Shown here: positions 1,969-41,505 of the stretch, in pieces
Numbering within the stretch: position 1 is the stretch's first letter
Layout of the letters: each line of letters begins with the position of its first letter
Source of the DNA: Escherichia phage vB_EcoM_G5211
DNA: 64,000 bases
Sequence record: MK327947.1
Reading direction: 5' to 3' (one strand)
The notes under the pieces: generated by a model
Databases searched by the model: none
What the model was told of the DNA's origin: nothing
What the model saw: only the letters and a program-made list of their open reading frames with translations
Made by a program: the position numbers and the translations under genes

Positions 1969-3210
1969 ATGACTCATATTTTTACTGAACTGTTGCGGGA
2001 ATCTACTTCCTCAGTAGCTAACCAGACAGCGCGACCGCAACTATTATCATTAACTCGCGCGGTAAACAACCTGATTTTCTCTGATCTGGTAGCAATCCAG
2101 CCAACGGATCAACCAGTATCTGCATTGTACGGCCTACGTTATCTTAATCGTGATGGTCAGATGACTTTCCGAACTGCTGCGACCTACGGTGGCGCGGCTG
2201 GTGATCGCACAGAGATTGAAGAGTTTTCAAAAGAAAAATCTTATGACGAAGGCGCACTGTTCAAATCAGGCGATGTTGTATACGAAGTTGTGACCGCTGG
2301 TACAGTCGGTGAAGATGCCGAAACTCCAGAATCTGCAATCTTTAAAGGCGTAATGACAAACAAAATTCGTTTCTATAGCGATTGTGCATCGGTAGAATAC
2401 TTTGAAGATAAAAACACCGAAATTGCGTCTACCTCTATGCAGTTTGACAAGTGGCAAGTTAATGTAGGTTCTCGTAAACTGAAAACCTCGTTCACCACTG
2501 AATTAATGCAGGATCTTGAGGCAAGCCAAATCAACTCTGAAAACTCTGTAATTGATCTTCTGGCTACTGTTGCTTCCGAAGAGATCAACAAAGATATTAT
2601 TCAGAAGTTGATCACTGTATCATCTCGCTATAAAATTAAAGGGATCACCCCTGATGGCGTACTTTCTCTCGTTAGCGTTCAGGATGCACCAACACAATCG
2701 CGTGAACTTTACCGCTATGCTTGCGAGATGAGCAATCAAATGTTGCGGACTTCCTCCTTTGCTGGTACATACGTTTTGGCGTCTTCTCGCGTGGTTGGCC
2801 TCCTGCAATCATCCGGTTGGATGGAAGAAACCGACAATGCTCTAAGCGAAGGTCGTCTACGTTGCGGTCTGGAAGTGTACGCAGACACGACAACACCTTT
2901 CGATTATATGCTCGTTGGTTGTAAGCACATGATCGGTGATATGGAGAGTGTCGGTTCTCTGTTCTACTCCCCATATACAGAAGCCGACGGCGCTGGCGCG
3001 TATAAGAGCGTAATTGACCCTAATAGCTTCCAGCATCATGTAGCTATTATGAATCGTTATTCACTCTCTGTCAACCCATACACATCAAAAGTTGATCAGG
3101 AAGAACACCAGGTCATCAAGGGTGACGATTGGGGTAAAATGGCTGGACGTTCAGAAATGTCCTACATTTTAGGAATCGAACTGCCACCACTTGAGATTGA
3201 CAACGCTTAA
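1969..3210 (+). CDS. 24: capsid vertex protein gp24
   Basis: Translation from the internal ATG (MTHIFTELLREST..) parallels T4 gp24 in length and motifs (NPYT, YSPYTE); the track ORF starts at an upstream TTG. Confidence 0.9.
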   Translation: MTHIFTELLRESTSSVANQTARPQLLSLTRAVNNLIFSDLVAIQPTDQPVSALYGLRYLNRDGQMTFRTAATYGGAAGDRTEIEEFSKEKSYDEGALFKSGDVVYEVVTAGTVGEDAETPESAIFKGVMTNKIRFYSDCASVEYFEDKNTEIASTSMQFDKWQVNVGSRKLKTSFTTELMQDLEASQINSENSVIDLLATVASEEINKDIIQKLITVSSRYKIKGITPDGVLSLVSVQDAPTQSRELYRYACEMSNQMLRTSSFAGTYVLASSRVVGLLQSSGWMEETDNALSEGRLRCGLEVYADTTTPFDYMLVGCKHMIGDMESVGSLFYSPYTEADGAGAYKSVIDPNSFQHHVAIMNRYSLSVNPYTSKVDQEEHQVIKGDDWGKMAGRSEMSYILGIELPPLEIDNA

Positions 3211-3798
3211 CTAAATATCTAACCAAGACAAGTCAGATCCGCCAAAGATTTTTTCGACGGCGGATCTATTTTCTTGATGATATAAGTTAAAACATGGTAT
3301 CCCATGTCTACGGGCAACATAAACAGCAATTCTAGTTCCTCCCGAAACGATTCCATTAACTTCTTTCGCCCAAAATATCACACAATCTACAGGGTCATCA
3401 AGTGTCTCACCTAAGACTTGAGCAACATTTCTAGAAAACAGATTTTGCATGTATAACGGTATAGAACGAGGATTATCATAAACGTGTTCTAATTCATCCA
3501 TCGCCAGATTTTTTTGTTCTAAGGTTTGCCATGCAATCACATCATGACCGTTATGCTTGTGGTCATAAAACTTCCAATTTGGAATGAAAATTTTTCTATA
3601 ATCTGGATCGTAATACTTCATGAAAGCATTGTCCATACCGTAAGCCCCTCCAGAATGCGCTACAACGCGATTTTCTGACAATACCCTCCCAATGGTACTA
3701 GCCATTATCAAAATGTCGCTAGGCGCTTTTCTAGAGCCTATTAAAGCACATCTACGAAGTGGTTTTACTCCAAATAGATCTTGTAACTGGTCAAACAT
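3211..3798 (-). CDS. hypothetical protein, SLOG/DprA-like Rossmann motif
   Basis: 195-aa ORF with GGAGGA RBS; motif ALIGSRK..VVAHSGGAYGMD resembles the DprA/LOG-type Rossmann signature. Confidence 0.6.
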   Translation of the reverse strand: MFDQLQDLFGVKPLRRCALIGSRKAPSDILIMASTIGRVLSENRVVAHSGGAYGMDNAFMKYYDPDYRKIFIPNWKFYDHKHNGHDVIAWQTLEQKNLAMDELEHVYDNPRSIPLYMQNLFSRNVAQVLGETLDDPVDCVIFWAKEVNGIVSGGTRIAVYVARRHGIPCFNLYHQENRSAVEKIFGGSDLSWLDI

Positions 3799-3951
3799 AA
3801 TATTTCCTCCATAGAAAGCAATATCATACTACAAGTTAATAACAAATACAAGTATCCGCGTAGCGGAAGCGAGCACAGCGAGCAATAAAAACACTTCCAG
3901 TAATTGATTAATAAATGTTCGAAACAAATTTTTATTATTCTATAAGATAAG

Positions 3952-3977
3952 TCTTCGTTTTGATCATAATTTAATCA
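3952..3977. repeat. 26-bp perfect direct repeat, copy 1
   Basis: tcttcgttttgatcataatttaatca; identical copy ~150 bp downstream with similar flanks. Confidence 0.7.
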
Positions 3978-4100
3978 CACATGTAAAAACTACACAAAAG
4001 GATATCGCTTCGCGAACTCCTACGGAGTATAACATTTGTGTTACAATATGTAGTGATTAATAATTAACCAAAGATACATTTTCTATGTTCTAAAGATCTT

Positions 4101-6851: not shown

Positions 6852-7580
6852 TTACTTGAGTGTGTGGAATTGGCTATGTTTAGTCTCTCGCACCTTGACA
6901 GACCCATCGCGTTTGATATAATAGATCAGTGACTTGAGGGTGTCGTGTACATACGCGTGCGGGAAACGCTCTGGATACTTCTTCCAATCTGGAGTATTAA
7001 CGATCCAGTCGAAAATCCACCACGGGCAGGAGTAGTAACCACGACCGCCACCGATCAAGCAAATGGTTGGACGGAAGCCGGTAAGATCGCAAAATGAATC
7101 AGTGTCATGTGCTGGGGAACGATGTTCTGCTTCGTCAGATAAAATGTTGGCTACCTGAGATTCCACTTTAACTTCCGGTACAACCACAATTTCAACTGGT
7201 ACTGTGTGTGGTTTGGCTTCTTCTACAACTGTAACTGTAACTGTAATTGGTTCTTCTTTTTGTTCTGGTTCTTTCATTGCTTCAACCAGAGACGGATCAA
7301 CTTCGTCGAATACTACTTTATCATCTGCGGTATCTGCTGCCAGAATAAGATCGTTAATACTGGTTCCTTCTGCCGGAGTTTCTTCTTCCATTTCGGATGC
7401 CAGTTTAGTTAATTCTGTTTCTACGAACTCGATCATGTTCTCTAGTGATAGCGTCTTTTTGACCTTGATGTCAAATTGTTTTGCGTAGTCCGCTAATTCT
7501 GTTTTAGCGGCTTTCTGTGCTTCTTTGTCGTCGGACGCCGCAATAGCGCGGAGTTCTTCGAAATATTCTTTATCAAACAT
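6852..7580 (-). CDS. Hoc-family capsid-binding-domain protein with acidic, TV-rich N-terminal region (occupies the inh position)
   Basis: C-terminal SCPWWIFDWI..DWKKYPERFPHAYVHDTLKSL parallels the Hoc module (GWWVFDEI..DW..Y.H..L); AGGAGAA RBS. Confidence 0.7.
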   Translation of the reverse strand: MFDKEYFEELRAIAASDDKEAQKAAKTELADYAKQFDIKVKKTLSLENMIEFVETELTKLASEMEEETPAEGTSINDLILAADTADDKVVFDEVDPSLVEAMKEPEQKEEPITVTVTVVEEAKPHTVPVEIVVVPEVKVESQVANILSDEAEHRSPAHDTDSFCDLTGFRPTICLIGGGRGYYSCPWWIFDWIVNTPDWKKYPERFPHAYVHDTLKSLIYYIKRDGSVKVRETKHSQFHTLK

Positions 7581-7606
7581 GTTATTCTCCTGATTGGGGG
7601 TGTTTG

Positions 7607-7614
7607 TATAAATA
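7607..7614 (+). promoter_or_regulatory. late promoter motif TATAAATA upstream of the segD-like gene and uvsW
   Basis: Exact octamer in the divergent intergenic region. Confidence 0.4.
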
Positions 7615-7652
7615 TTTGTATACTGTATTTATTGCATACGGAGATTTTTACT

Positions 7653-8384
7653 ATGGCTAAAAGATTTCATTATGTTTATGAGATAAAGAATCTTGTAAAC
7701 GGCAAGCTGTATATAGGTAAACATTCTACTAACAATATGCATGATGGATATATGGGGTCTGGTGACCTTCTTCGTGCTGCATTTGAAAAATATGGCATTG
7801 AGAACTTCGAGAAGCGCATATTAAAAATGTTTGATACCGAGCAGGATGCTTACCTATACGAGAAAGAACTTGTCACTGTTGACATTGTAAAAGATCCCAA
7901 TTATTATAATGTAGTTACTGGCGGTCGTTATGACGGAGACCAGGTATACTCAGACTCTGTACGCGCTAAAATGTCTTCTTCTGCCAAAGAGCGCGTAGAA
8001 CGTGATATGAAAACTGGAAAACTAAAAAAAGCAATAGTAGGTATGCGAGAGAGTGTTTCCGGTAGCTCATGGTATAATGACGGTGTTAAATCTATACGAG
8101 TTCGAGATGGAGAAACTCCACCTGACGGATTCGTCAAGGGTAATTTACATGCTGGGTGGGACCATATAGAATGGACGGAGGAACGCAAAGCCGCTAACAG
8201 GGAAATATGTCTAAGACAAGTCCAAAAGGATCGTGAGTCCGGTGCTCTCGCCGAGCGTGTAGCAAGGCTTAACGATTTTCATACTGGCAGTAAGTGGTAT
8301 AACAACGGGGTAGTTAATAAGGTCGTGAAACGCGGTGACACCCCTCCTGATGGTTTTGTTCTTGGAAAACTTGTTAAAAGGTGA
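7653..8384 (+). CDS. segD: GIY-YIG homing endonuclease, Seg-like (segD position)
   Basis: N-terminal HYVYEIKNLVNGKLYIGKHS GIY-YIG motif; GGAG RBS; duplicated GDTPPDGFV segments near the C-terminus. Confidence 0.75.
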   Translation: MAKRFHYVYEIKNLVNGKLYIGKHSTNNMHDGYMGSGDLLRAAFEKYGIENFEKRILKMFDTEQDAYLYEKELVTVDIVKDPNYYNVVTGGRYDGDQVYSDSVRAKMSSSAKERVERDMKTGKLKKAIVGMRESVSGSSWYNDGVKSIRVRDGETPPDGFVKGNLHAGWDHIEWTEERKAANREICLRQVQKDRESGALAERVARLNDFHTGSKWYNNGVVNKVVKRGDTPPDGFVLGKLVKR

Positions 8385-8388
8385 TGTG

Positions 8389-9891
8389 ATGCAAGATATT
8401 CATGTGCATTTTATGAATTATAGTTTTGTTAAAATTGAATGTTCTGATTCAATATCTATGGAATTACGAGACTATTTTTCTTTTGAGATTGAAGGTGCAA
8501 GATTTAATCCTCGTTATCGCTACGGGCAATGGGATGGGCGAATCCGGCTATTTACCTATGAAAACACTCTTCCTATCGGACTGATCAAAACTTTGGGTAT
8601 CTTTGCTAAGAATATGAGCTATTCTGTTTGGATTGATCCCCGTCTTCTGGAAAAGGAGAAAATCACTAAAGAAGATATTGATAGTTGGATCGGTTCGTTG
8701 GCGATATATTCTGGCGCTAATAAGATCACCCCTCATTGGTATCAAAGTGAAGCTGTATTTCAGGGTATACATAATCGTCGTAGAATGTTAGTTTTGCCTA
8801 CTTCTGCTGGTAAAAGTTTGATTGCTTGTTTATTATCTCGATGGTATCTGGAAAACTACGAGGGAAAGGTACTAATCATCGTTCCAACTACTTCTCTTGT
8901 TCTCCAGATGCGTGATGACTTTATTGATTATAGGCTATTCCCTTTTGAGGCTATCCATACAATGATGAGTGGTAGCCAAAAACATCCAGGGGAACGATTG
9001 ATAACTGTTTCAACTTGGCAATCTGCGTGTAAGATGCCTAAAGAGTGGTTCCAGCAATACGGAATGGTTATTGTCGATGAATGTCACAAAGCAACCGCCA
9101 AAAACCTTCAAAATATTGTAAATGATATGACTCATTGCCAATTTAAGATTGGTATGACTGGTTCACCTCGTGACGGTAAGTGTAATGCTTTACAATATGT
9201 TGGATTATTTGGCGATATATCTAGGATCGTAAGTATTGATCGTCTTATGGATGAAGGACAAGTTACAAAACTGAAAATTAACTGTCTATTCCTAAAATAT
9301 ACTGACGATGAATGTACGTCGATTAAGGGGAAAGAATACGCGGAAGAGATCAAATATATAACTTCACACGGTAGACGGAATAAGTTTGTGTGTAATTTGG
9401 CACTAAAACTAGCTAAGAAGGGCGAAAACGTATTCCTGATGTTCCGCAATACTAAGCACGGAAAACTTATGTATGACGCGTTACAGAAGGTACACGACAA
9501 GGTTTATTATATTGACGGTGGAGTTAAGACAGAAGAACGTGATGAATTTAAGAAATTAGCGGAAGGGGAAACAGGGATCATTTGTGTTGCTTCCTATGGT
9601 GTTTTCTCTACTGGTGTTTCAATTAAGAATTTGCACCATGTTATTTTCGGTCATCCCGTGAAGGAATCAACTATCGTTCGTCAGAGTATCGGTCGTGCAT
9701 TGCGTAAACATGGTTCTAAGGATATTGCAACGGTCTGGGATCTTATAGATCATCTGGCGGTGAAGACAAAGAGCAATAATGCTAAGAAACAGTTTAGCCA
9801 CCTTAATTATGCTCTTAAACATGCGCTTGAAAGAATAAAAATTTACAACACCGATCGATTCGAATATGTCACGAAAACAATCGAGATTTAA
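8389..9891 (+). CDS. uvsW: UvsW helicase
   Basis: From the internal ATG (MQDIHVHF..) the sequence parallels T4 UvsW with helicase motifs (LPTSAGKS, DECH); AGGTGA RBS. Confidence 0.9.
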   Translation: MQDIHVHFMNYSFVKIECSDSISMELRDYFSFEIEGARFNPRYRYGQWDGRIRLFTYENTLPIGLIKTLGIFAKNMSYSVWIDPRLLEKEKITKEDIDSWIGSLAIYSGANKITPHWYQSEAVFQGIHNRRRMLVLPTSAGKSLIACLLSRWYLENYEGKVLIIVPTTSLVLQMRDDFIDYRLFPFEAIHTMMSGSQKHPGERLITVSTWQSACKMPKEWFQQYGMVIVDECHKATAKNLQNIVNDMTHCQFKIGMTGSPRDGKCNALQYVGLFGDISRIVSIDRLMDEGQVTKLKINCLFLKYTDDECTSIKGKEYAEEIKYITSHGRRNKFVCNLALKLAKKGENVFLMFRNTKHGKLMYDALQKVHDKVYYIDGGVKTEERDEFKKLAEGETGIICVASYGVFSTGVSIKNLHHVIFGHPVKESTIVRQSIGRALRKHGSKDIATVWDLIDHLAVKTKSNNAKKQFSHLNYALKHALERIKIYNTDRFEYVTKTIEI

Positions 9892-25276: not shown

Positions 25277-25585
25277 TCATTTAGACAAATAATCATTCTG
25301 TGCAATCCGGTCGGCGTATGCTGGTGTTATGTCAATCGCCAGCACTTTAACGCGTGCTTTCTTGCGACCTGTGTTTTCTCGTAACCAGTGCTCATGACCG
25401 TGAACATTTTTATACTGCGATGCTTCTTCGAAGGTACGGATCGGACCTGGATAATCTGCGTAAAGGATCTCTAGGTCTTCGGTGATGTAAAAATATACAT
25501 CATAATTACTGTTCTCTAGTTTAAGCAGAGACTTTCGGAACATTGGGAGATTTTCGCGGGTAAATTCAAAGATATTATCTTTCAT
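25277..25585 (-). CDS. small early protein (102 aa), member 1 of an H-x-H-W paralog family
   Basis: ..YFYITEDLEILYADY..HGHEHW..VKVLAIDI.. pattern shared with 26005, 26298 and 27016. Confidence 0.6.
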   Translation of the reverse strand: MKDNIFEFTRENLPMFRKSLLKLENSNYDVYFYITEDLEILYADYPGPIRTFEEASQYKNVHGHEHWLRENTGRKKARVKVLAIDITPAYADRIAQNDYLSK

Positions 25586-25607
25586 AGTATTATCCTCAAT
25601 AGTTGGA

Positions 25608-25630
25608 TGAAAAGGGGGCTTAACGCCCCC
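25608..25630 (-). terminator. hairpin GGGGGC-guuaa-GCCCCC with U-run (- strand)
   Basis: Between 25636..25923 and the RBS of 25277..25585. Confidence 0.5.
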
Positions 25631-25635
25631 ATATA

Positions 25636-25923
25636 TTAAAACAGACCTTCCTGTACACCGTAGTAGAGTTCATCGCTGATAATTTCATTAATGCGACGGT
25701 GTGCATATTCCTGATTTGCGAAGTTGTCAGCAAGTTCTACTTTAGTTTCGCCGTCATGAGTCCATTTAGTGATAACTTTACCATCTGCAAATTTGAAGTT
25801 GAACTCTTTAGCTACCGCATCGCGTACCAGACGTGCAAACTTATTGTTGCGGATTGCATTGTCGGTTTCGTGTGCAGCGTGAGCGAATTTGTTAACTTTC
25901 AGAGTGATAGTAATGTATGCCAT
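25636..25923 (-). CDS. small early hypothetical protein (95 aa)
   Basis: ATG behind a cassette. Confidence 0.6.
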   Translation of the reverse strand: MAYITITLKVNKFAHAAHETDNAIRNNKFARLVRDAVAKEFNFKFADGKVITKWTHDGETKVELADNFANQEYAHRRINEIISDELYYGVQEGLF

Positions 25924-25998
25924 AATTTGATTCTCCTAGTTAGAAAGTGTATCTCGTTTCGATGGGTGTATTATGCTATACACCCAACCTCATGTCAA
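25924..25998 (-). promoter_or_regulatory. early promoter plus stem-loop cassette (PeSL-like)
   Basis: TTGACA-17-CATAAT with GGGTGTAT..ATACACCC palindrome. Confidence 0.6.
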
Positions 25999-26004
25999 CA
26001 CTTT

Positions 26005-26283
26005 TTATAAAATAATTTTTTGATATTTTTCTATGATGTTCGTGTAATTCACATCAACCGCTAGCACCGTTGCTTCGAATCCACCGTTTAGCCAATGGCT
26101 ATGATCGTGATCGTGAAAGAAACCTAGACCAGTACGAAGACCTTCTTTATATTCGGCGCGTACATTTAGATCATCATCGATAAACAGATAAAACCATGAA
26201 TTTTTACTAGGATTGATGATACAACCTTTCAGATTCGGGAGAATATCACGACTAAGAATAAACTTATCACCTACTTTGAACAT
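26005..26283 (-). CDS. small early protein (92 aa), member 2 of the H-x-H-W paralog family
   Basis: ..FYLFIDDDLNVRAEY..HDHDHSHW..VLAVDV.. Confidence 0.6.
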   Translation of the reverse strand: MFKVGDKFILSRDILPNLKGCIINPSKNSWFYLFIDDDLNVRAEYKEGLRTGLGFFHDHDHSHWLNGGFEATVLAVDVNYTNIIEKYQKIIL

Positions 26284-26297
26284 AATATTTTCCTCAC

Positions 26298-26606
26298 TTA
26301 TAAAGTTTGACCGTTGTTTTTCGCATAATGCTTAATGCGTGCTTGATCTGCTTCCGCTGGTGATAGATTCCATGCAACCACTACAACTTCTGACGCATCG
26401 TCATCCGTTTCTGATACCCAATGGTTGTGATTCATACAGTTATTTGCTATCGAGTGAGCAAATGATTTCATCACTGGAGACGTATAATCATAGTAACGGA
26501 TTTTCAGATTTTCATCAACATACAAGTAGATCGTATAAGGTTTATATTCAGTAACCAGTAACAGACAGTTACGCAATTCTGGGAAAATCTTTTTAGTTAA
26601 TTTCAT
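26298..26606 (-). CDS. small early protein (103 aa from internal ATG), member 3 of the H-x-H-W family
   Basis: ..IYLYVDENLKIRYYDY..NHNHW..VVVVAW..; the ATG lies 1 nt from the stop of the upstream ORF. Confidence 0.6.
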   Translation of the reverse strand: MKLTKKIFPELRNCLLLVTEYKPYTIYLYVDENLKIRYYDYTSPVMKSFAHSIANNCMNHNHWVSETDDDASEVVVVAWNLSPAEADQARIKHYAKNNGQTL

Positions 26607-26607
26607 T

Positions 26608-26817
26608 TTATAATCCTCGGTCGCGGCTATAGTACACGGTACGCCATACAATTTCATGTTTCGTGTCGCTCCAGCACACGATCTCATTTACTCTTAAATC
26701 TTTGTTATCAACAAAAGATGAACATTGTGACGCTTCTTTCATCATTTTATCTGCTGTTTTCTCATCAAATACAGCACAGATTTCTTTATACACTCGATAA
26801 TCTTTAAACTTGCTCAT
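26608..26817 (-). CDS. small early protein (~70 aa), MSKFKDY paralog 1
   Basis: MSKFKDYRVYKEICAVFDEKTADKMMKEASQCSSF..; tandem paralog of 26820..27029. Confidence 0.55.
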   Translation of the reverse strand: MSKFKDYRVYKEICAVFDEKTADKMMKEASQCSSFVDNKDLRVNEIVCWSDTKHEIVWRTVYYSRDRGL

Positions 26818-26819
26818 AA

Positions 26820-27029
26820 TTAACACCAATCAAGAGTTTTTGAGAAAACCTCTATCCATTGTTGAGTATATGCGGTTTCTTTCCATGATACAATACCAGT
26901 AGAATAATGGTTTTTGTTTCCAGAAAATGACGGGCATTTTGATGCATCTTCCATCATCTTTTCGGCGAACTCTGGTTCGTATACTCGCAAGATCTGTTGA
27001 TATGCTTTATAATCTTTAAATTTGCTCAT
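26820..27029 (-). CDS. small early protein (~70 aa), MSKFKDY paralog 2
   Basis: MSKFKDYKAYQQILRVYEPEFAEKMMEDASKCPSF.. Confidence 0.55.
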   Translation of the reverse strand: MSKFKDYKAYQQILRVYEPEFAEKMMEDASKCPSFSGNKNHYSTGIVSWKETAYTQQWIEVFSKTLDWC

Positions 27030-27294
27030 AATCATTCACTACCTTATCAGCTTCTTTTGTTGTTTTTACATCAACTGCGATAACCCGTAAAGGTTCGTCA
27101 TGGTTCCACCAATGATCGTGAATATCGGCTTGTGATTTATCACCAAAGGAATCACGAATATCATTTTTACTTTTATAGCTAATGTGACCGTCATAGTCAA
27201 CATAAAGGTAATTATCGAAAATCGGCGTTTTTAAGATCATGCCGAAAAATCTTTCTTTGTGTGTCTTATCCAGCGTTGCAGTAATTCGCATCAT
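27016..27294 (-). CDS. small early protein (92 aa), member 4 of the H-x-H-W paralog family
   Basis: ..YLYVDYDGHISY..HDHWW..VIAVDV.. Confidence 0.6.
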   Translation of the reverse strand: MMRITATLDKTHKERFFGMILKTPIFDNYLYVDYDGHISYKSKNDIRDSFGDKSQADIHDHWWNHDEPLRVIAVDVKTTKEADKVVNDYEQI

Positions 27295-27718: not shown

Positions 27719-27782
27719 TTTTGATTCTCCTATATCTCGTTGGTATGTGTGTATTATAGGGGATCTCCCGATCCCCTGTCAA
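27719..27782 (-). promoter_or_regulatory. early promoter plus stem-loop cassette (PeSL-like)
   Basis: TTGACA-18-TATAAT with GGGGATC-tccc-GATCCCC palindrome. Confidence 0.6.
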
Positions 27783-27795
27783 CAACTTTTTTGAA

Positions 27796-28272
27796 TTATT
27801 TTTCTTGATGCTCGCGCTCGTACTTTTCGAAATAAAATTCTACTGGCTGGTCATGAATTGACAGCAAGCCAAAGCGTTTAGCCGCTCGCAATCCCATATT
27901 GCGCTGAATGTACTTCTGGAAGTTCTCGCGTATACACTTACGCCAGTATTCTAAGCCCATACAGCTTTTATAAAGATTGCATTGTACACACGCCGGATTC
28001 ATGTTATCAAGTATATCATGTTCCGGTTTATGCATTCCTACAACCTTATACTTCCACGACCCATCATCATTACGGGCAATTCGTCCATTTTCATCATAGA
28101 CTACCTTTGAGCGTCGCAATACTGGTTTGATATGGTCTGCGTGCCAGCGATCCCCTAGTTCCTCGCCACAATAGGCACAACGCCCACCGTATTTCATTTT
28201 CAGGATCTGGCGTTGCTCTTTCTTTGACAATTTTTTAGGTTTAGGGGCTTTCGCCCCTTCATTATCACACAT
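27796..28272 (-). CDS. HNH endonuclease (free-standing, abutting the DNA ligase gene)
   Basis: CAYCGEEL..WHADHIKP..NMNPACVQCN matches the HNH Cys/His pattern; start overlaps the 3' end of gene 30. Confidence 0.75.
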   Translation of the reverse strand: MCDNEGAKAPKPKKLSKKEQRQILKMKYGGRCAYCGEELGDRWHADHIKPVLRRSKVVYDENGRIARNDDGSWKYKVVGMHKPEHDILDNMNPACVQCNLYKSCMGLEYWRKCIRENFQKYIQRNMGLRAAKRFGLLSIHDQPVEFYFEKYEREHQEK

Positions 28273-29761
28273 CGAATACCTCTTTTACTGTATTTGCCGT
28301 GGTCTTGTCGTAGCGAATACGTTTGATGATTGGGAGAAATAAAGAGAACTCCGGTTCATCTTCTTTACGTGATTTGCTGCGGATATACCCGTTGCATGTC
28401 ATCTCAATGACTTTTCCAATCAGGTTATGACGGTCAGCCCATAACATTTCTCGGTCGAGTTCATTTCGACGATCGAACGGAATTACACGTTCGATACCAT
28501 CATCACCTTTTTCGGTTGTGGTGTCGGTTAATCCCGATCCGGTGTTAGTCATCATTCGTCCGCACGCACTACGGACAGTAAAACCGCCTACCTTATTGGG
28601 GTCTTTACTATGCGGATATACATCAACAATTTCCGCGTCGAAGTCAATAACTTCTTTAAATTTAACCTGATCTTTACTGCGACGATCTTCAAATACACCA
28701 TGTAAATTTTTAAGGATAATACCTTCTAAGCCCATGTTTACATAGCGATGATATACTTCGCGAGCTTCATCGATATTGTTAACTACAGTGTTTTCGATTA
28801 TCTGAACACGAGGATCGTTAAGTTCTTCAACAATCTGTTTTAGTTCTTCGAATCGATCTTTATATTGCTTCGTTGCTTTCTCGTTTCCGTAATACACATC
28901 ACGGTCGATAACATCCCAGACAGTGTAAACAATACATTGGGCTTCTTCTTTTGGAATAGTTCCTTTCAGTGATTTGTTGAGGATACCATTTCCGGTCTGA
29001 CGATCTGCAACAACGGATTCTTTCACTGCTTCCGCTACTGGCGTTAATGGCATTTCATCTTCTTCAAATATCCATGACAGAGTACCATCATAAACGCTCT
29101 CAACGAAGTTCTGCGCTGGTGTTTGCGAAAGGGTAGGCATATATACCAATTCGCCATCTAGAACAATTCCACGGCCTCGTAGACGCTCTAAAACCACAAA
29201 CAAATCATCAAGCCCTTGATAGGTATTACCTGAACGGGTATAGATTGCTAATGTTTCCCCGTCAATATCAGCCATCCCACGAGCGCCATCGCTTTTAAGT
29301 TGTGCATACGCCGGATATTTGATATTGGCAATGGTCTTATCAGAACATGACGATGCAAGGTGGCACGGCTGCTGAGGAATCAGTTTCTTCCATACCTTGT
29401 TTGCGGTGGTAGCGGAACAACCGCATTCTAGGTCTCGATTCAGGACCATCATTGCAACTTTAGCATCGTCTTCCGACAAGCAAGTCAGAGTATCGGTAAC
29501 TAGCTGTAATGCTGCATTACCAGTTATTTGACGCGTGGCAAGTTTATTTTTAAAGACCTGTAATGCGCCAGATAAAGACAATACAGATGAATAACGCGAC
29601 GGTTTATCGTATTTCTTTACGCCAAACGTAACCTGTTTGCAATATGCCAGATAAAAGCATTCTTTCAGCGTTTCATTGCTTGCAGATTCTTTCAGGATCT
29701 TTTCTTTCAGCGATGTTTTGTCTGTTGCTGCAAGCTGATTAATGATATTAAGAATTGACAT
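28265..29761 (-). CDS. 30: ATP-dependent DNA ligase gp30
   Basis: From the internal ATG (MSILNIINQ..); KSDGAR adenylation motif region and overall parallel to T4 ligase; the track ORF starts at GTG 29767. Confidence 0.9.
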   Translation of the reverse strand: MSILNIINQLAATDKTSLKEKILKESASNETLKECFYLAYCKQVTFGVKKYDKPSRYSSVLSLSGALQVFKNKLATRQITGNAALQLVTDTLTCLSEDDAKVAMMVLNRDLECGCSATTANKVWKKLIPQQPCHLASSCSDKTIANIKYPAYAQLKSDGARGMADIDGETLAIYTRSGNTYQGLDDLFVVLERLRGRGIVLDGELVYMPTLSQTPAQNFVESVYDGTLSWIFEEDEMPLTPVAEAVKESVVADRQTGNGILNKSLKGTIPKEEAQCIVYTVWDVIDRDVYYGNEKATKQYKDRFEELKQIVEELNDPRVQIIENTVVNNIDEAREVYHRYVNMGLEGIILKNLHGVFEDRRSKDQVKFKEVIDFDAEIVDVYPHSKDPNKVGGFTVRSACGRMMTNTGSGLTDTTTEKGDDGIERVIPFDRRNELDREMLWADRHNLIGKVIEMTCNGYIRSKSRKEDEPEFSLFLPIIKRIRYDKTTANTVKEVFDV

Positions 29762-30227
29762 TTTCACCTCGTTTTGTTAAACGTTCACGAATATCATTGA
29801 GGATACTACAAAATTCCGATTCAGTCAATATAGTCTTTAACGGATCAGTTCCACCTATGCTATGACGTAATTTCTTATTTCCGGTAGCGAGTAATGCTTT
29901 ACAAAATTCTGGGTTATTCCGTGCCATCGTAACAAATGCCAGATGTACCAGTCTGTAATAATGCTCACTCATTCGATGAATAGGGCGACCCTGAAAATAT
30001 AACATGTGATTCTCAATCTTTTCAGTTCTTCCGGTTCTTTTTGCTTTGCCACCGTGCATCAAAAAGATTTCTCTTTGTCTCTGAGGGTTCTTAAATCTTA
30101 GCCCCTGTAAAAATCCTTCTGTGCTGTTAATATCGCAACCAAATAGACGGAATGGTCTTTTATTGAAATTGCTCAATTCACCCGATGGATAAGGTCCACC
30201 CGCATAGATATCAATTTCAGAAGTCAT
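29748..30227 (-). CDS. NADAR/YbiA-like (DUF1768) protein
   Basis: PSGELSNFNKRPF..EGFLQGLRF and ALLATGNKKL resemble the NADAR family signature. Confidence 0.6.
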   Translation of the reverse strand: MTSEIDIYAGGPYPSGELSNFNKRPFRLFGCDINSTEGFLQGLRFKNPQRQREIFLMHGGKAKRTGRTEKIENHMLYFQGRPIHRMSEHYYRLVHLAFVTMARNNPEFCKALLATGNKKLRHSIGGTDPLKTILTESEFCSILNDIRERLTKRGENVNS

Positions 30228-36472: not shown

Positions 36473-36949
36473 TTAATCATGACCGTGATTTGCAATATCC
36501 GCTCGCGTCTTATCTTTGTGATTTCCTACGTCAAAGACACGATAACCATTTTCACGCAAAACTTTAATCACTTCTGGGTTATCCTCAAAGACTCCGACAA
36601 CTTCATCTTTATCAAAGGATTTAATTACCTCTAATTTGATGTGATAGTCTTTACGGGAATCGGTACGGCCTCTCATAAAGATTTTATCAAAACACACCCC
36701 GTTAGAAATTAACCAATCAATTGTTTCCATGTAAGCATGTGAACTTCGTCCGGTGAGGATGTAAATCAAATGCCCGTTGTCGGAAAGAGCATTAATAACA
36801 CGAATTACATCGTAAATGGGGGAATCTCCCCCACATGCCTTGTTATATTCGATCCATGACTCGACTTTATCAAGATTTTCGGTTGGCATCTTTGCTAGTC
36901 GATGCGTTGGATCTGTGATCGTAAAATCTAAATCGACAAAATATATCAT
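36473..36949 (-). CDS. HAD-superfamily phosphatase (nucleotidase-like)
   Basis: FVDLDFTIT (DxDxT), ILTGRS and FEDN motifs; start overlaps the nrdB stop (ATGA). Confidence 0.65.
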   Translation of the reverse strand: MIYFVDLDFTITDPTHRLAKMPTENLDKVESWIEYNKACGGDSPIYDVIRVINALSDNGHLIYILTGRSSHAYMETIDWLISNGVCFDKIFMRGRTDSRKDYHIKLEVIKSFDKDEVVGVFEDNPEVIKVLRENGYRVFDVGNHKDKTRADIANHGHD

Positions 36950-38133
36950 AGATATTTCCCGAATCGGTTGTAGTCTTCGTCTGTTAAATCGGTATTAACC
37001 TGAGATACCAGATACATGATCTCTACTTCTTGCGCCGCGTTTTGAACTTCGTCAGAGTTTAACCACTTACGCATCCACGGTAAAGGATGACGACGAACAC
37101 TAAACGGGCTTTTCAGTCCGGCAGCACGCATACGGGAATCTGCCAGGTATTCTACATAGGTTTTCAGAATTTCCGGTGACAGGTTAGGAATTGCCCCCAT
37201 TGCGAATAGGTGGTCTACCCATTCTTTTTCTTGCTCGACAACATCCAGAAAGATTTTCGTTGCTTCGCCTTCAAGTTCTTCCGCAATCTGTTTCCACTCA
37301 TCACCATCAGCCCCCGTTTGCCATTGACGAATAATGTATTGTGTGCCTTTTAAGTGAAGTTGTTCATCACGCGCAATAAATTTCATGATCTTCGCGTTAC
37401 CTTCCAGTAAACCACGTTCGGCAAAGCTGAAAGTACATGCAAAGGACACATAAAAACGGATTGCTTCCAGTGCATTGACGCAGTGTACACACAGATAAAT
37501 CGAAGCCATCAGATCTCGTTTTGTATCTTCAAAAAATCTTCTTGCATCATCTAATTCTGTCTGATCGTCTCGTTCTTCCCAATAGTGGTGGAGAACTTCT
37601 TCTTCCCAATAGCGGAGATCTTCTTTTGCATTCTCATACTTACGAATCCAATAGAGAACATCATCATAATATTGCCCGATAGATTCCGCTCGCTTCATGA
37701 TAGCAGGGTTATCGATGATCTGGTCAAACTCACTAGCCGGATCAATAAAACAGTTACGCATAATGTGTGTATAGCTTCTGCTATGAATCGTTTCGCTGAA
37801 TGTCCATGTTTGCAACCATGTATCAAGAGTTGGATCAGATACAATTGGACCAAATACACGGGCTGGCGCTCTGCCTTGAATCGAATCTAGCAAAGTTTGA
37901 TAACGTAAGTTCTCGGTGAAGAAACGCTTTTCAACATCGCTCATATTCAGATATTGAATGCGGTCAGTTGCAAGTGAAATCTCTTCTGGACGCCAGAAAA
38001 ATGACAACTGCTTCTCGATCAACTCTTCAAATACTTGATGACGCTGAATATCATAACGGGCAATCCCTAAATCACTACCAAAAAACATCGGTTCGGTCAT
38101 AATATCAACATGTTCACGATTAAATACGCTCAT
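36946..38133 (-). CDS. nrdB: ribonucleotide reductase small subunit
   Basis: From the second codon ATG (MSVFNREH..); di-iron/tyrosyl-radical region ..FSFAERG..; continuous ORF with no intron. Confidence 0.9.
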   Translation of the reverse strand: MSVFNREHVDIMTEPMFFGSDLGIARYDIQRHQVFEELIEKQLSFFWRPEEISLATDRIQYLNMSDVEKRFFTENLRYQTLLDSIQGRAPARVFGPIVSDPTLDTWLQTWTFSETIHSRSYTHIMRNCFIDPASEFDQIIDNPAIMKRAESIGQYYDDVLYWIRKYENAKEDLRYWEEEVLHHYWEERDDQTELDDARRFFEDTKRDLMASIYLCVHCVNALEAIRFYVSFACTFSFAERGLLEGNAKIMKFIARDEQLHLKGTQYIIRQWQTGADGDEWKQIAEELEGEATKIFLDVVEQEKEWVDHLFAMGAIPNLSPEILKTYVEYLADSRMRAAGLKSPFSVRRHPLPWMRKWLNSDEVQNAAQEVEIMYLVSQVNTDLTDEDYNRFGKYL

Positions 38134-38135
38134 CA

Positions 38136-38675
38136 CTATTCTCCATCAATTTTGTTTATATTGTAGCCCATGTTGCCTTTTTCTATTTCTCTCAACGCAA
38201 CTGAATTAAACGCTCTTGCCGCATCTTGTTCGCTATCAAATCTCCCTATATGAACACTCTTTCCTTGTATATTAATATGAACTAGCCATCTATTTGTGTA
38301 CTTACACCAACTTACCCCGTTATATTTTGATGATGCACCTTTAAATTTAGTTCTGTTTCTATTATTGACAGAATAATCAGTACCTCGTAAATTTTCTATA
38401 TGATTGTTCAGCTTGTTTCGGTCGATGTGATCTATAACTTTAGGCTTATGCCCGTGAAACATATGATAAATCACATGATGTATTAACTTCTTTCTATTGT
38501 CTACTGTTAGTTGAAGATATCCCCCATTATGTGGACTTCCAACCTCATCACCAACTTTAACTTTATTGCTTGTTGAAACCTTTCTGAAAAGTTTACCATC
38601 TTCGTATTTAAATAGATAATGATACCTTTCGTAAAGTATTCGGTCCTCTTCCGTATAATGTATTACCTCATACAT
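38136..38675 (-). CDS. HNH homing endonuclease with AP2-like DNA-binding domain (mobE-like position between nrdA and nrdB)
   Basis: HNH motif ..IDHIDRNKLNNHIENLR..; AP2-like SSKYNGVSW..KSVHIGRFDSEQDAARAF. Confidence 0.75.
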   Translation of the reverse strand: MYEVIHYTEEDRILYERYHYLFKYEDGKLFRKVSTSNKVKVGDEVGSPHNGGYLQLTVDNRKKLIHHVIYHMFHGHKPKVIDHIDRNKLNNHIENLRGTDYSVNNRNRTKFKGASSKYNGVSWCKYTNRWLVHINIQGKSVHIGRFDSEQDAARAFNSVALREIEKGNMGYNINKIDGE

Positions 38676-38685
38676 AATATTTTAC

Positions 38686-38853
38686 TCACTTTTTAACACA
38701 AAATAACTTAGTATTTCTGTTTACTTCGCTATCCCGCTGCAATTCCTGCACAGCTTCAAAACAATTTTGATATGATGAAAACTCTACGCTGGTAACAGTT
38801 CCTTTATTATATACGCCTACGCTAACGGAAAGCAATAACCATAATGTAGCCAT
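38686..38853 (-). CDS. small protein with hydrophobic N-terminus (55 aa), tandem paralog 1; not in the ORF track
   Basis: MATLWLLLSVSVGVYNKGTVTSVEFSSYQNCFEAVQELQRDSEVNRNTKLFCVKK; start overlaps the paralog stop (TAATG). Confidence 0.45.
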   Translation of the reverse strand: MATLWLLLSVSVGVYNKGTVTSVEFSSYQNCFEAVQELQRDSEVNRNTKLFCVKK

Positions 38854-39026
38854 TAGTTCACCTTTTGTTTTTCAACGCAATATAGATTCATAAAGCGTTT
38901 ATTGTCTTCGCTGATAATCTCGCGAGCTTTAACGCAATCCTGCTTTGTTGCAAACTCAATGCTTGACATATTTCCGTAATTATACATTGAATTGCTTATT
39001 GCAATCAATAACCATACAGTAGCCAT
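38853..39026 (-). CDS. small protein with hydrophobic N-terminus (57 aa), tandem paralog 2; not in the ORF track
   Basis: MATVWLLIAISNSMYNYGNMSSIEFATKQDCVKAREIISEDNKRFMNLYCVEKQKVN. Confidence 0.45.
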   Translation of the reverse strand: MATVWLLIAISNSMYNYGNMSSIEFATKQDCVKAREIISEDNKRFMNLYCVEKQKVN

Positions 39027-39193
39027 TATCCGACAACCTCAAAACATTTATCATCAGGAAGAATCGCCCATTCTACACCGTATTCATCCTCGACGTAGTA
39101 GCAAGTCCCATCATGTCGAGCATCATATTCATCACCAACAACAAAGCTATCAGCTAGTTCAAAATCTACAGCAACACATTTTAATTTGGTCAT
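39026..39193 (-). CDS. small early hypothetical protein (55 aa from internal ATG)
   Basis: ATG directly after a cassette leader; CxxxxC-rich. Confidence 0.5.
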   Translation of the reverse strand: MTKLKCVAVDFELADSFVVGDEYDARHDGTCYYVEDEYGVEWAILPDDKCFEVVG

Positions 39194-39253
39194 AATAAAA
39201 TCCTCACTTGTTTTTGATGGTTGTATTATAGCGGGGATTTCTCCCCGCGTCAA
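39194..39253 (-). promoter_or_regulatory. early promoter plus stem-loop cassette (PeSL-like)
   Basis: TTGACG-17-TATAAT with GCGGGGA-tttc-TCCCCGC palindrome. Confidence 0.6.
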
Positions 39254-39261
39254 CACTTATT

Positions 39262-41505
39262 TTACAGCTTGCAAGATGAGCACTCGCTAGCGTCTTCCGT
39301 ACCATCTGCACCGTCGCGAACGTTCGCATAATACAGGGTTTTCAGACCGTAATATTGAGCAAACAACATATCATCTAATACATCAGCAATATCGACTTTA
39401 CCAGTCTTATAAGTGCTTGGATCGTAGGATGTGTTGGAACTAATCGCCTGATCTACAAACTTCTGCATGATCGCTGCCAGTGTCAGATAAGGCTTGTTAC
39501 CTTTCTTGATCAGTGTCCAAAGCAGGTCAATAACATCAGCATTATTCTCTACGTTCGGAATAACCTGATTAAATTGCCCTTCTTTCGATCCTTTAACCGA
39601 TACAATACCGCGAGGCGGTTCAATACCGTTTGTGCTGTTAGATACCTGAGAAGACGACTCACAAGGCATCAGCGCCGACAGTGTACTGTTACGAATGCCA
39701 TATTTTTTCAGGTCTTCGCGCAGTTCTTCCCAATCCATCTCATACACCGGATCAACCAGTTCATCTACTGTCTTTTTGTACCAGTCGATAGGAAGTTCAC
39801 CGCGACCATAGCGTGTTTCGTGCATCAGTTCGCAAGCACCCTTCTCTTTAGCCAGTCGCACACTAGCCTTAATCAGAGCATATTGCAAGCGTTCAAACGT
39901 TTTATGCGTAAACTCGTTAGCGTCTTCATATGTGAAGAAATTATCTGCTAGATATGATGCAAAGTTAGTAACACCAACACCCAGAGAGCGACGTTTTTTG
40001 GCTGTCAGAGCTTGTTCTACAGGATAATCCTGATAATCTAACAGGTTGTCAAGTGCACGCACCATAACCATAGCAATGCGTTCTACTTCTTCCATATTTT
40101 CGATATCGAAATTACCTAAAACATATGCTGCCAAAGTACATAGGCTAATTTCTGAATCATCACGCCCCATCGGTTTTGTTGGCAGAGCAATTTCACAACA
40201 CAAGTTAGATTGTTTAATCGGTGCTACATTACGAATAAACGCCCCGTGATTGTTCATGTTGTCTGTGAACGTTGGGTAGATTCGACCAGTGTTAAAACGT
40301 TCAATTGCCACCGCTAAAAACAGGTCTTCGGCTTTAACACGAGTTTTACGAACACTCGGATCTTTTTCCAGTTTTTCGTAAAGCTGGCGGAAACCTTCCT
40401 CATCTCGGAAGTATAGATCCCACAACAAGCCACCCGCAACATCTGGACTAAACAGAGTAATGTAATCCCGTTTAAGGAATCGCTCTACCATCAGGTTATT
40501 AATCTGTACGCCGTAGTCAAGATGGCGAATGCGGTTATCTTCCACGCCCTTATTGTTCTTTAACACAATCAGACTTTCAAACTCTAAATGCCACATTGGG
40601 TAATAGAGAGTCGCCGCCCCGCCACGAATGCCGCCTTGTGAGCATGACTTAACGGCAGTCTGAAAATGTTTCCAGAATGGGATAACGCCAGTATGACGAA
40701 CTTCACCATGCCCGATCTTAGATCCTTCCGCGCGAATCATGCCAGCGTTGATACCGATACCAGCACGCTTGCTAATATACTTGATGATTGCATTTGCTGT
40801 TTCGTTGATGCCCTGCAATGAGTCATCACTTTCAATCACCACACACGAACTAAATTGGCGTGTTGGGGTACGCACACCTGCCATAATCGGAGTAGGCAGA
40901 GAGATTTGCTTATTCGCAACAGCATTATAAAAATCAATCACATGTTCAAGTCGATTTTCTGTCTCTTCTTGATGCAAGCACATACCGATCAGCATATACG
41001 CAAATTGCGGTGTTTCGATGATTTTCTTAGTGCTGCGATCCTGAACAAGATATTTCTCTTTTAACTGCATCGCACCAGCATAGGTCATTTTAAAATCAAG
41101 TTTATGGTCGATGAATTTCTCCAGATATTCCACTTCTTCACGGGAATACTTTTGCAGAATTTCGCGATCATATTTTCCGGTTGCAATATTACGCTCAATA
41201 TGGCTGTAAAAATCAATCGGTTGGAATTGACCGTATACTGATTTGCGAAGCGCGAACATTGCAAGGTTACTTGCTACATATTGATAATCGGGCGTTTCTA
41301 CCGTGATGTTATCTGCGGCGACCTTAATCAATACTTTCTGGATATCATTGGTAGACATACCTTCTGTCAGAAGTGGTTCAACCATATCAAACAATTCATA
41401 TGGATCAACGTTATGACCTTCGGCTGCCGCTTCCAGAATTTTCATTACTTTTTCTTTTTCAAACGGAACAGTCAGACCGGAAGACTTAACAACATTTTTA
41501 ATCAT
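39262..41505 (-). CDS. nrdA: ribonucleotide reductase large subunit
   Basis: 747 aa; ATP-cone N-terminus; catalytic-site motifs (..NLCCEI.., ..CESSSQV..); C-terminal CSSCKL. Confidence 0.9.
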   Translation of the reverse strand: MIKNVVKSSGLTVPFEKEKVMKILEAAAEGHNVDPYELFDMVEPLLTEGMSTNDIQKVLIKVAADNITVETPDYQYVASNLAMFALRKSVYGQFQPIDFYSHIERNIATGKYDREILQKYSREEVEYLEKFIDHKLDFKMTYAGAMQLKEKYLVQDRSTKKIIETPQFAYMLIGMCLHQEETENRLEHVIDFYNAVANKQISLPTPIMAGVRTPTRQFSSCVVIESDDSLQGINETANAIIKYISKRAGIGINAGMIRAEGSKIGHGEVRHTGVIPFWKHFQTAVKSCSQGGIRGGAATLYYPMWHLEFESLIVLKNNKGVEDNRIRHLDYGVQINNLMVERFLKRDYITLFSPDVAGGLLWDLYFRDEEGFRQLYEKLEKDPSVRKTRVKAEDLFLAVAIERFNTGRIYPTFTDNMNNHGAFIRNVAPIKQSNLCCEIALPTKPMGRDDSEISLCTLAAYVLGNFDIENMEEVERIAMVMVRALDNLLDYQDYPVEQALTAKKRRSLGVGVTNFASYLADNFFTYEDANEFTHKTFERLQYALIKASVRLAKEKGACELMHETRYGRGELPIDWYKKTVDELVDPVYEMDWEELREDLKKYGIRNSTLSALMPCESSSQVSNSTNGIEPPRGIVSVKGSKEGQFNQVIPNVENNADVIDLLWTLIKKGNKPYLTLAAIMQKFVDQAISSNTSYDPSTYKTGKVDIADVLDDMLFAQYYGLKTLYYANVRDGADGTEDASECSSCKL

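Follow-up and report, generated by a model that had tools for sequence, protein, structure and literature searches.

The HNH endonuclease gene behind DNA ligase in Krischvirus phages is fixed in the genus and under purifying selection

Is a small HNH endonuclease gene that starts within the 3' end of a phage DNA ligase gene a homing endonuclease, or has it become a resident of the genome that carries it? The question arose from an earlier note on the window, i.e. the whole stretch of 64,000 nucleotides analysed here, in which a full HNH Cys/His pattern in a 158-aa ORF abutting an essential gene was taken as the typical arrangement of a homing endonuclease. The window belongs to the Krischvirus group (RB49/Phi1/JSE/GEC-3S/ECD7 type). 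The gene is already known and is annotated as 'HNH endonuclease' in RefSeq (RB49p212, phi1p212). A literature search yielded no paper pairing 'Krischvirus' with 'HNH endonuclease'. Among the putative homing endonuclease genes that a 2010 review tallied for RB49, phi-1 and JSE is one 'other HNH' (PMC2993671), which is probably the gene behind ligase. The locus comprises the following features:

27796..28272, minus strand: HNH nuclease ORF, 158 aa, ATG at 28272; orthologue of RB49p212 / phi1p212
27967..28179, minus strand: catalytic core of the HNH nuclease, residues 32-102, with the invariant columns of a 75-sequence family alignment
28265..28282, minus strand: ligase/HNH junction, consisting of a GAGG Shine-Dalgarno sequence, a 6-nt spacer and then ATGTGTGA
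28265..29761, minus strand: DNA ligase, gene 30, 498 aa from the annotated ATG; PF01068 5e-22; annotated in RB49, Phi1 and others
29748..30227, minus strand: gp30.3 homologue upstream of ligase; PF08010 1e-38; synteny in 12 relatives
27753..27782, minus strand: early promoter of the sigma-70 type, TTGACA-18-TATAAT, 12/12 match, 14 nt 3' of the HNH stop

The 158-aa ORF proved to be real, and its start overlaps the 3' end of a gene whose PF01068 match identifies it as a genuine ATP-dependent DNA ligase. Both genes lie in a co-oriented series with the order 31 - ORF - 30.3 - 30 - HNH. The 8-nt overlap ATGTGTGA contains the ligase TGA stop (28265-28267) and the HNH ATG (28270-28272), and the GAGG Shine-Dalgarno sequence (28279-28282) is located 6 nt 5' of this ATG. 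A Shine-Dalgarno sequence combined with a start that overlaps the ligase stop implies that the HNH protein is translationally coupled to ligase and made together with it. Between both genes neither a terminator-like nor a strong promoter-like site was detected. Taken together with the overlap and with the promoter that follows the HNH stop, this makes the HNH gene the final cistron, coupled in translation, of the early 31-30.3-30 block. The ORF listing extended the ligase to a GTG at 29767 (500 aa); all annotated relatives start at the ATG at 29761. From either start the ligase gene overlaps the end of the gp30.3 gene at 29748, so that the string 30.3-30-HNH is composed of overlapping cistrons throughout. 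The ligases of 13 Krischvirus sequences ended in the same 13 residues, and every HNH ORF began in register at the junction. Base composition was considered as a sign of recent transfer and discarded, as the GC content of the HNH gene (43.6% vs 40.4% in the window) is not distinctive.

The promoter at 27753..27782 is the beginning of a hyperplastic region of small ORFs, which the HNH gene borders. Its 18-nt spacer folds as a GGGGATC-GGGA-GATCCCC stem-loop, and the element resembles the cassette boundaries reported from RB49 and phi1 under the name PeSL (promoter-early stem-loop), where the hyperplastic region lies by ORF210/211 (Arbiol et al., PMC2839356). Two haplotypes of the HNH 3' end were found (27796..27811 in the window vs 2488..2500 in the RB49 locus L007). 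The 158-aa form ends in EREHQEK and is present in the window, Phi1, GEC-3S and others; the 157-aa form ends in ERENKE and is present in RB49, JSE, Cognac and others. Since the two differ at the very 3' end, a recombination breakpoint is placed within the last 5 codons. In 4/4 inspected loci of the RB49 type (RB49, Cognac, KMB43, GoldenSnicker) the 157-aa form is accompanied by a 345-nt ORF that abuts the HNH stop. This ORF, RB49 ORF211, has been reported as an integron-ORF homologue. When translations were compared by eye, the hyperplastic region 3' of the HNH gene (25277..27294, minus strand) appeared to contain tandem paralogues. A His-rich '..H(D/E/N)H..W..' motif occurs at a similar relative position in the ORFs 25277..25585, 26005..26283, 26298..26687 and 27016..27294, and the ORFs 26608..26829 and 26820..27035 both open with MSKFKDY.

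The full HNH Cys/His pattern was confirmed by profile searches and by family-wide conservation. The protein matched Pfam PF01844 (HNH) with 27 bits against a cutoff of 21.4 and the PHROG 2118 'HNH endonuclease' profile with an E value of 8e-55. In the 75-sequence alignment the residues C32, C35, D46, H47, N90, C95, C98, N99, K102 and R111 were invariant, as was a C-terminal FYFE motif. The core is laid out as CxxC (C32, C35), D46-H47, N90, CxxC (C95, C98), N99 and K102. The HNH signature is thus represented by D46 and H47, N90 and N99 (Asp-His general base, structural Asn and metal-binding Asn), and the two CxxC pairs are predicted to form a structural zinc site. AlphaFold2 returned one confident compact domain (pLDDT 93.2, pTM 0.78), and the predicted structure has the beta-beta-alpha fold of the HNH superfamily. 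Residues ~52-81 form a lineage-specific long beta-hairpin insert, the Krischvirus proteins carry an extra Lys-rich N-terminal extension of 12 aa, and the C-terminal helices are conserved throughout the family. No NUMOD, AP2 or HTH module was detected by Pfam, PF01844 being the sole domain matched, and the single compact domain leaves the protein without a DNA-binding module of the homing type. The intact core and the lack of extra modules suggest an active nuclease without extended modules for reading a long target, predicted from sequence and model to be of the compact, Cys4-zinc-stabilised beta-beta-alpha-metal type. Searching 5.8 billion proteins yielded 179 homologues, most of them 120-145 aa long and labelled at most 'HNH endonuclease'; the window protein is 100% identical to the copies of GEC-3S, ECD7, Skers and others. 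An assignment to the defence-type HNH proteins (PtuB/retron, Cas9) was rejected, since the PADLOC and NCBIfam matches were sub-threshold and at motif level only.

The DNA of the HNH ORF was found in 58 phage records, all of them Krischvirus and all with the gene adjacent to ligase, at 95.8-100% identity. A query of the HNH gene plus 729 nt of ligase matched 58/58 of these records in one contiguous piece (at least 99% coverage, 96.6-99.3% nucleotide identity); the set includes six GenBank/RefSeq duplicate pairs and several near-identical isolates. The ligase region was present in 59 records, compared with 58 for the ligase 3' end plus HNH. The 59th has no match to the 729-nt ligase 3' segment, and therefore probably represents an incomplete entry rather than an empty site. 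The HNH gene was also present in 5/5 IMG/VR and metagenome contigs with a 99-100% identical ligase. Thus neither an empty site nor an insertion scar was observed behind ligase in the 58 records or the five contigs, and the presence/absence polymorphism by which homing genes are recognised is missing from this set. The divergence of flanks that accompanies co-conversion is likewise missing, the ligase 3' end and the HNH gene being 96.6-99.3% identical everywhere.

The situation is different outside the genus. In Slopekvirus KP27, Tequatrovirus G28 and Lasallevirus Acj61 (an Acinetobacter phage) only small unrelated ORFs follow gene 30, and this HNH gene was found within 3 kb of ligase in 0 of 81 more distant ligase loci. 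The gene abuts a conserved gene behind which other lineages lack it, as expected of a homing gene. Its absence behind the ligase of other T4-type genera indicates that it was acquired at some point, and its distribution as a whole that it is specific to, and fixed within, this lineage. The comparison with T4, T2 and T6 that had been proposed for defining the insertion boundaries cannot do so, because their ligases are only about 41% identical to that of the window. Ligase identities were at least 95% within the genus and then dropped to at most 45% in phage records and at most 51% in IMG/VR contigs. Scans of IMG/VR and metagenomes with the C-terminal half of ligase (99-100% or at most 51% identity) gave no intermediate lineages.

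The one intermediate lineage came to light in a protein search, which revealed a 70% identical HNH protein (P0003) on two short contigs, L019 and L020 (Logan SRR8048111 / SRR8048117). There it lies directly behind the C-terminal half of a ligase with 71% amino acid identity. In L019 the two genes share a TAATG stop/start overlap analogous to the junction of the window, and a terminator-like hairpin and a promoter follow. No phage record falls between this lineage and the genus; it is Krischvirus-like and unsampled. Between the window and the L019/L020 lineage dN was 0.228 for HNH and 0.216 for ligase, with dS saturated. To judge from these sequences, both genes have evidently been inherited jointly and have diverged in step over a long period. 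The earlier note had stated that homing would be refuted if every relative had the ORF conserved at the site and no insertion scar were seen. This pattern was obtained, with contiguous matches in 58/58 records and the same layout in the 71%/70% lineage, where 'all relatives' stands for one tight clade plus one short metagenomic lineage and unsampled relatives without the HNH gene may exist.

Selection was assessed by Nei-Gojobori dN/dS in 12 diverse Krischvirus genomes and the window. All 13 HNH ORFs were intact. The values for the three genes, from pairs that are not independent and with recombination ignored, were as follows:

HNH: dN/dS 0.036; 38 synonymous-only vs 7 replacement codon columns; mean dS 0.14
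Ligase: dN/dS 0.037, in the same 13 Krischvirus sequences
gp30.3: dN/dS 0.056, in the same 13 Krischvirus sequences

Purifying selection on the HNH gene is as strong as on ligase. A homing gene without remaining empty sites is expected to drift to inactivation. Two disrupted copies were encountered in metagenomic data. In a 26.6-kb Krischvirus contig (L021 4001..4330; Logan ERR14656784) a TGG to TAG change at W110 results in a 109-aa product that forms a protein cluster of three members (P0002), with the rest of the ORF still well conserved. This may be a natural truncated allele or an error and, if real, shows that the phage can dispense with the C-terminal third, at least for some time. A 1-kb metagenome contig (L041 435..1029; MAVA01000210.1) contains the HNH gene with three 1-nt deletions, all in short homopolymer runs, and with the last ~10 codons replaced by other sequence. 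The deletions resemble sequencing errors, and the contig is probably a low-quality or chimeric assembly; it could also represent a third downstream haplotype.

Two other free-standing endonuclease genes had been pointed out in the window, and both were recovered at the positions given. They serve as comparators, together with the flanks of the second:

7653..8384, plus strand: GIY-YIG Seg-like free-standing endonuclease between inh and uvsW, directly before uvsW; SegE_GIY-YIG 5e-8
38136..38675, minus strand: free-standing endonuclease with HNH_3 (1e-9) and AP2 (4e-7; 30.8 bits, slightly below the Pfam cutoff of 33.3), between nrdA and nrdB
39262..41505: nrdA, flank of the HNH-AP2 gene
36946..38136: nrdB, flank of the HNH-AP2 gene

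The GIY-YIG gene occurred in 3 of 58 Krischvirus records (PTE-Eco09, AV108, FL20), each with a match of only 93-94%. Across the examined region (6852..9891) the inh/uvsW flanks were 86-90% identical in the 55 records without the gene, compared with the usual 96-97%. Such a low flank identity in genomes lacking the gene reads as a classic signature of homing or marker exclusion. The HNH-AP2 gene was complete in a single record out of 58 (G2494) and covered to 97% in two pieces in G37-3. At this site about 40 records showed 88% query coverage, which is consistent with an empty site (~565 bp absent), and most of the remaining records had a different annotated insert, either a 'homing endonuclease' (JSE, AV108, FL15, phiS, SSG23, PTE-Eco09) or a DNA methyltransferase (Delraymugoa, Aragogtheria, KMB43). 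The intergenic site between nrdA and nrdB is a hotspot, located at the position of T4 mobE. Both comparators show the sporadic spread expected of mobile endonucleases. Their opposite behaviour in the same window and the same set of genomes constitutes the strongest argument against current homing of the HNH gene next to ligase. It also shows that an HNH gene beside an essential gene is not sufficient for calling homing.

Homologues of the HNH protein with 33-49% identity were located in unrelated contexts, i.e. in siphoviruses, prophages and one T4-like phage of Morganella. Nine homologue neighbourhoods were heterogeneous and had no conserved partner gene in common; they included primase, methylase and ParB genes, the nin region, Pol I plus helicase, an integrative element and a position upstream of terminase. 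In the Morganella phage vB_Mm5 a 49% homologue (L001 3986..4414) occupies another locus, directly behind a vs.6/grcA homologue. Its start abuts the preceding gene (3333-3986), the 3' end of which matches the vs.6/grcA region of T4-like phages, and DNA homology to ~1500 T4-like genomes stops at the HNH start codon. This locus fits a family that has inserted independently in T4-like genomes. Sporadic occurrence within the Morganella/Proteus T4-like clade was considered and set aside, since the DNA of these genomes has diverged too far for an empty site to be delimited.

On balance, we consider it moderately probable that the Krischvirus lineage inherits the gene vertically, as a resident gene for an accessory nuclease, and that no homing takes place at present. 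The Krischvirus ancestor would long ago have acquired a free-standing HNH gene of the PHROG 2118 family, probably once, from a source family that appears scattered through the early or replication regions of siphoviruses and prophages. The acquired gene would have landed immediately 3' of ligase, and the phage may have retained it since the enzyme was useful, a benefit suggested by its conservation. Its activity is probably the nicking or cutting of DNA, with a sequence specificity that is short or low, and catalysis would involve one metal ion, with His47 serving as the general base. A partner may be required, and the enzyme may function in DNA transactions early in infection or in competing with other DNA that is present in the cell. 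What stands of the initial homing proposal is a free-standing, acquired nuclease gene next to gene 30, abutting an essential gene behind which other T4-type genera have no such gene. What found no support is the role of a homing endonuclease in the working sense, given the fixation in 58/58 records, the dN/dS of 0.036, the lack of flank divergence and the lack of a DNA-recognition module.

The main alternative, possible if rather unlikely, is a still-active free-standing homing endonuclease (intronless homing, like T4 SegF/SegG/MobE) that swept through the sampled Krischvirus genomes. Selection would then be maintained by encounters with unsampled relatives lacking the HNH gene, whose ligase region is cut and converted. 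The position right behind a conserved essential gene, at a site where other genera lack the gene, is typical of such enzymes. The scatter of the family among unrelated phages agrees with mobility, as does the vB_Mm5 locus, where the same protein family sits elsewhere and DNA homology ends at the HNH start. The gene also borders a recombination-active hyperplastic region with two haplotypes that split within the last 5 codons, and it has probably been counted among the putative homing endonuclease genes (PMC2993671). Against continued homing stand the absence of an empty site in the 58 records and five metagenomic contigs and the codivergence with ligase down to 70% identity. Fixed homing genes would be expected to decay, but this one has the same dN/dS as ligase. 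Furthermore, the ligase flank is 96.6-99.3% identical everywhere, compared with the 86-90% of the flanks at the sporadic seg-like gene, and the protein has no DNA-binding extension for recognising a long target.

Domestication represents another, doubtful possibility, in which the HNH protein would be an ex-mobile nuclease in functional partnership with the translationally coupled ligase. Early in infection, the two could work as a pair that nicks and seals phage or host DNA or processes breaks in it. Alternatively, the nuclease could serve as a weapon against the DNA of co-infecting phages or host elements, with the co-expressed ligase repairing collateral nicks. The ligase-HNH linkage down to ~70% identity and the equal non-synonymous rates are compatible with such a partnership. 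If a host-beneficial role linked to ligase were true, the gene would count as a modest case of a domesticated nuclease among T4-type phages.

A packaging-associated HNH protein of the HK97 gp74 / GVE2 type, i.e. one that promotes the cleavage of concatemers by terminase, is very unlikely. It is suggested by the location of some homologues, in Bas79 and HC6, at genome ends or immediately 5' of the large terminase gene. However, most homologues occur in replication, nin or methylase neighbourhoods and not beside terminase. The Krischvirus gene belongs to the early ligase operon, with gp30.3, ligase and small ORFs of the hyperplastic region as neighbours and neither a portal gene adjacent nor a terminase gene within 2.5 kb. 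T4-type phages use headful packaging by gp16/gp17 with gp49 (PMC2993671), which also counts against a terminase-helper role.

A junction-resolving role in the manner of endonuclease VII, in which the protein would replace gp49 or serve as its backup, is highly improbable. Two PHROGs labelled 'endonuclease VII' gave weak profile matches (1e-9, 6e-7), and T4 endonuclease VII also belongs to the beta-beta-alpha-metal superfamily. The dimerisation domain of endonuclease VII is absent, however, and a full-length canonical gp49 is encoded elsewhere in Krischvirus genomes (GEC-3S 38775-39245; 44.6% identity to T4 gp49, E 3e-40), so that a role as substitute was rejected. A tblastn search of the window with T4 gp49 matched nothing except the CxxC stretch of the HNH ORF.

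A decaying or non-functional remnant that merely persists, as the two disrupted metagenomic copies L021 (W110 nonsense) and L041 (three 1-nt deletions, which in the short homopolymer runs of a 1-kb contig look like sequencing errors) might suggest, is effectively refuted by the selection analysis (dN/dS 0.036 over a dS of about 0.14, 13/13 isolate ORFs intact), and also opposed by the contiguous matches in 58/58 records, the full length of the tblastn matches listed, the invariance of all catalytic residues and the 70% amino acid conservation in a lineage with saturated synonymous sites.

The resident-gene reading has a corrective value, as distribution and selection mark the gene as fixed and selectively maintained, in contrast to its probable listing as a putative homing gene (PMC2993671).

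Comparison with known systems places the gene among the small phage HNH nucleases. The T4 genes MobA-E are likewise small HNH genes lodged between or behind conserved genes of T4-type phages and missing at the equivalent site in other genera. T4 Mob proteins are of the HNH_3 type with extra DNA-binding modules, and their genes are sporadic even among close relatives, with MobE located between nrdA and nrdB. In contrast, the HNH protein encoded behind ligase has PF01844 as its only domain, and its gene is fixed in the genus and under ligase-like purifying selection. The real analogue of MobE in the window is the HNH-AP2 gene between nrdA and nrdB, and not the HNH gene behind ligase.

The small HNH proteins of PHROG 2118 (Sasha gp76, HK225 gp55, Bcep176 gp50) belong to the same family with 33-49% identity. 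They share the CxxC...DH...N...CxxCN core and the C-terminal AKRFGL...FYFE helical region, and the start of their genes often overlaps the stop of the upstream gene, as it does here. The Krischvirus protein differs by its Lys-rich N-terminus of 12 aa and a longer hairpin insert at residues ~55-80, and its gene by other neighbours; no other PHROG 2118 member examined adjoins a ligase. The HNH domain of type II-C Cas9 (G. stearothermophilus, A. naeslundii, N. meningitidis) matches the fold with only 14-22% identity. Unlike Cas9, the phage protein is a stand-alone enzyme without guide or recognition lobes, and the likeness is one of fold and not of membership. The small nicking HNH proteins (Geobacter Gmet_0936; GVE2 / HK97 gp74-type) differ from the Krischvirus protein, which has an extra C-terminal helical region and whose gene is not in a terminase neighbourhood. 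The 'HNH endonuclease' of RB49p212, phi1p212, JSE, GEC-3S and ECD7 is the same gene, with 97.5-100% protein identity and with the same position and overlap with gene 30 as in the window. RB49 carries the 157-aa variant with ORF211 directly next to it and the window the 158-aa variant; nothing material differs between them.
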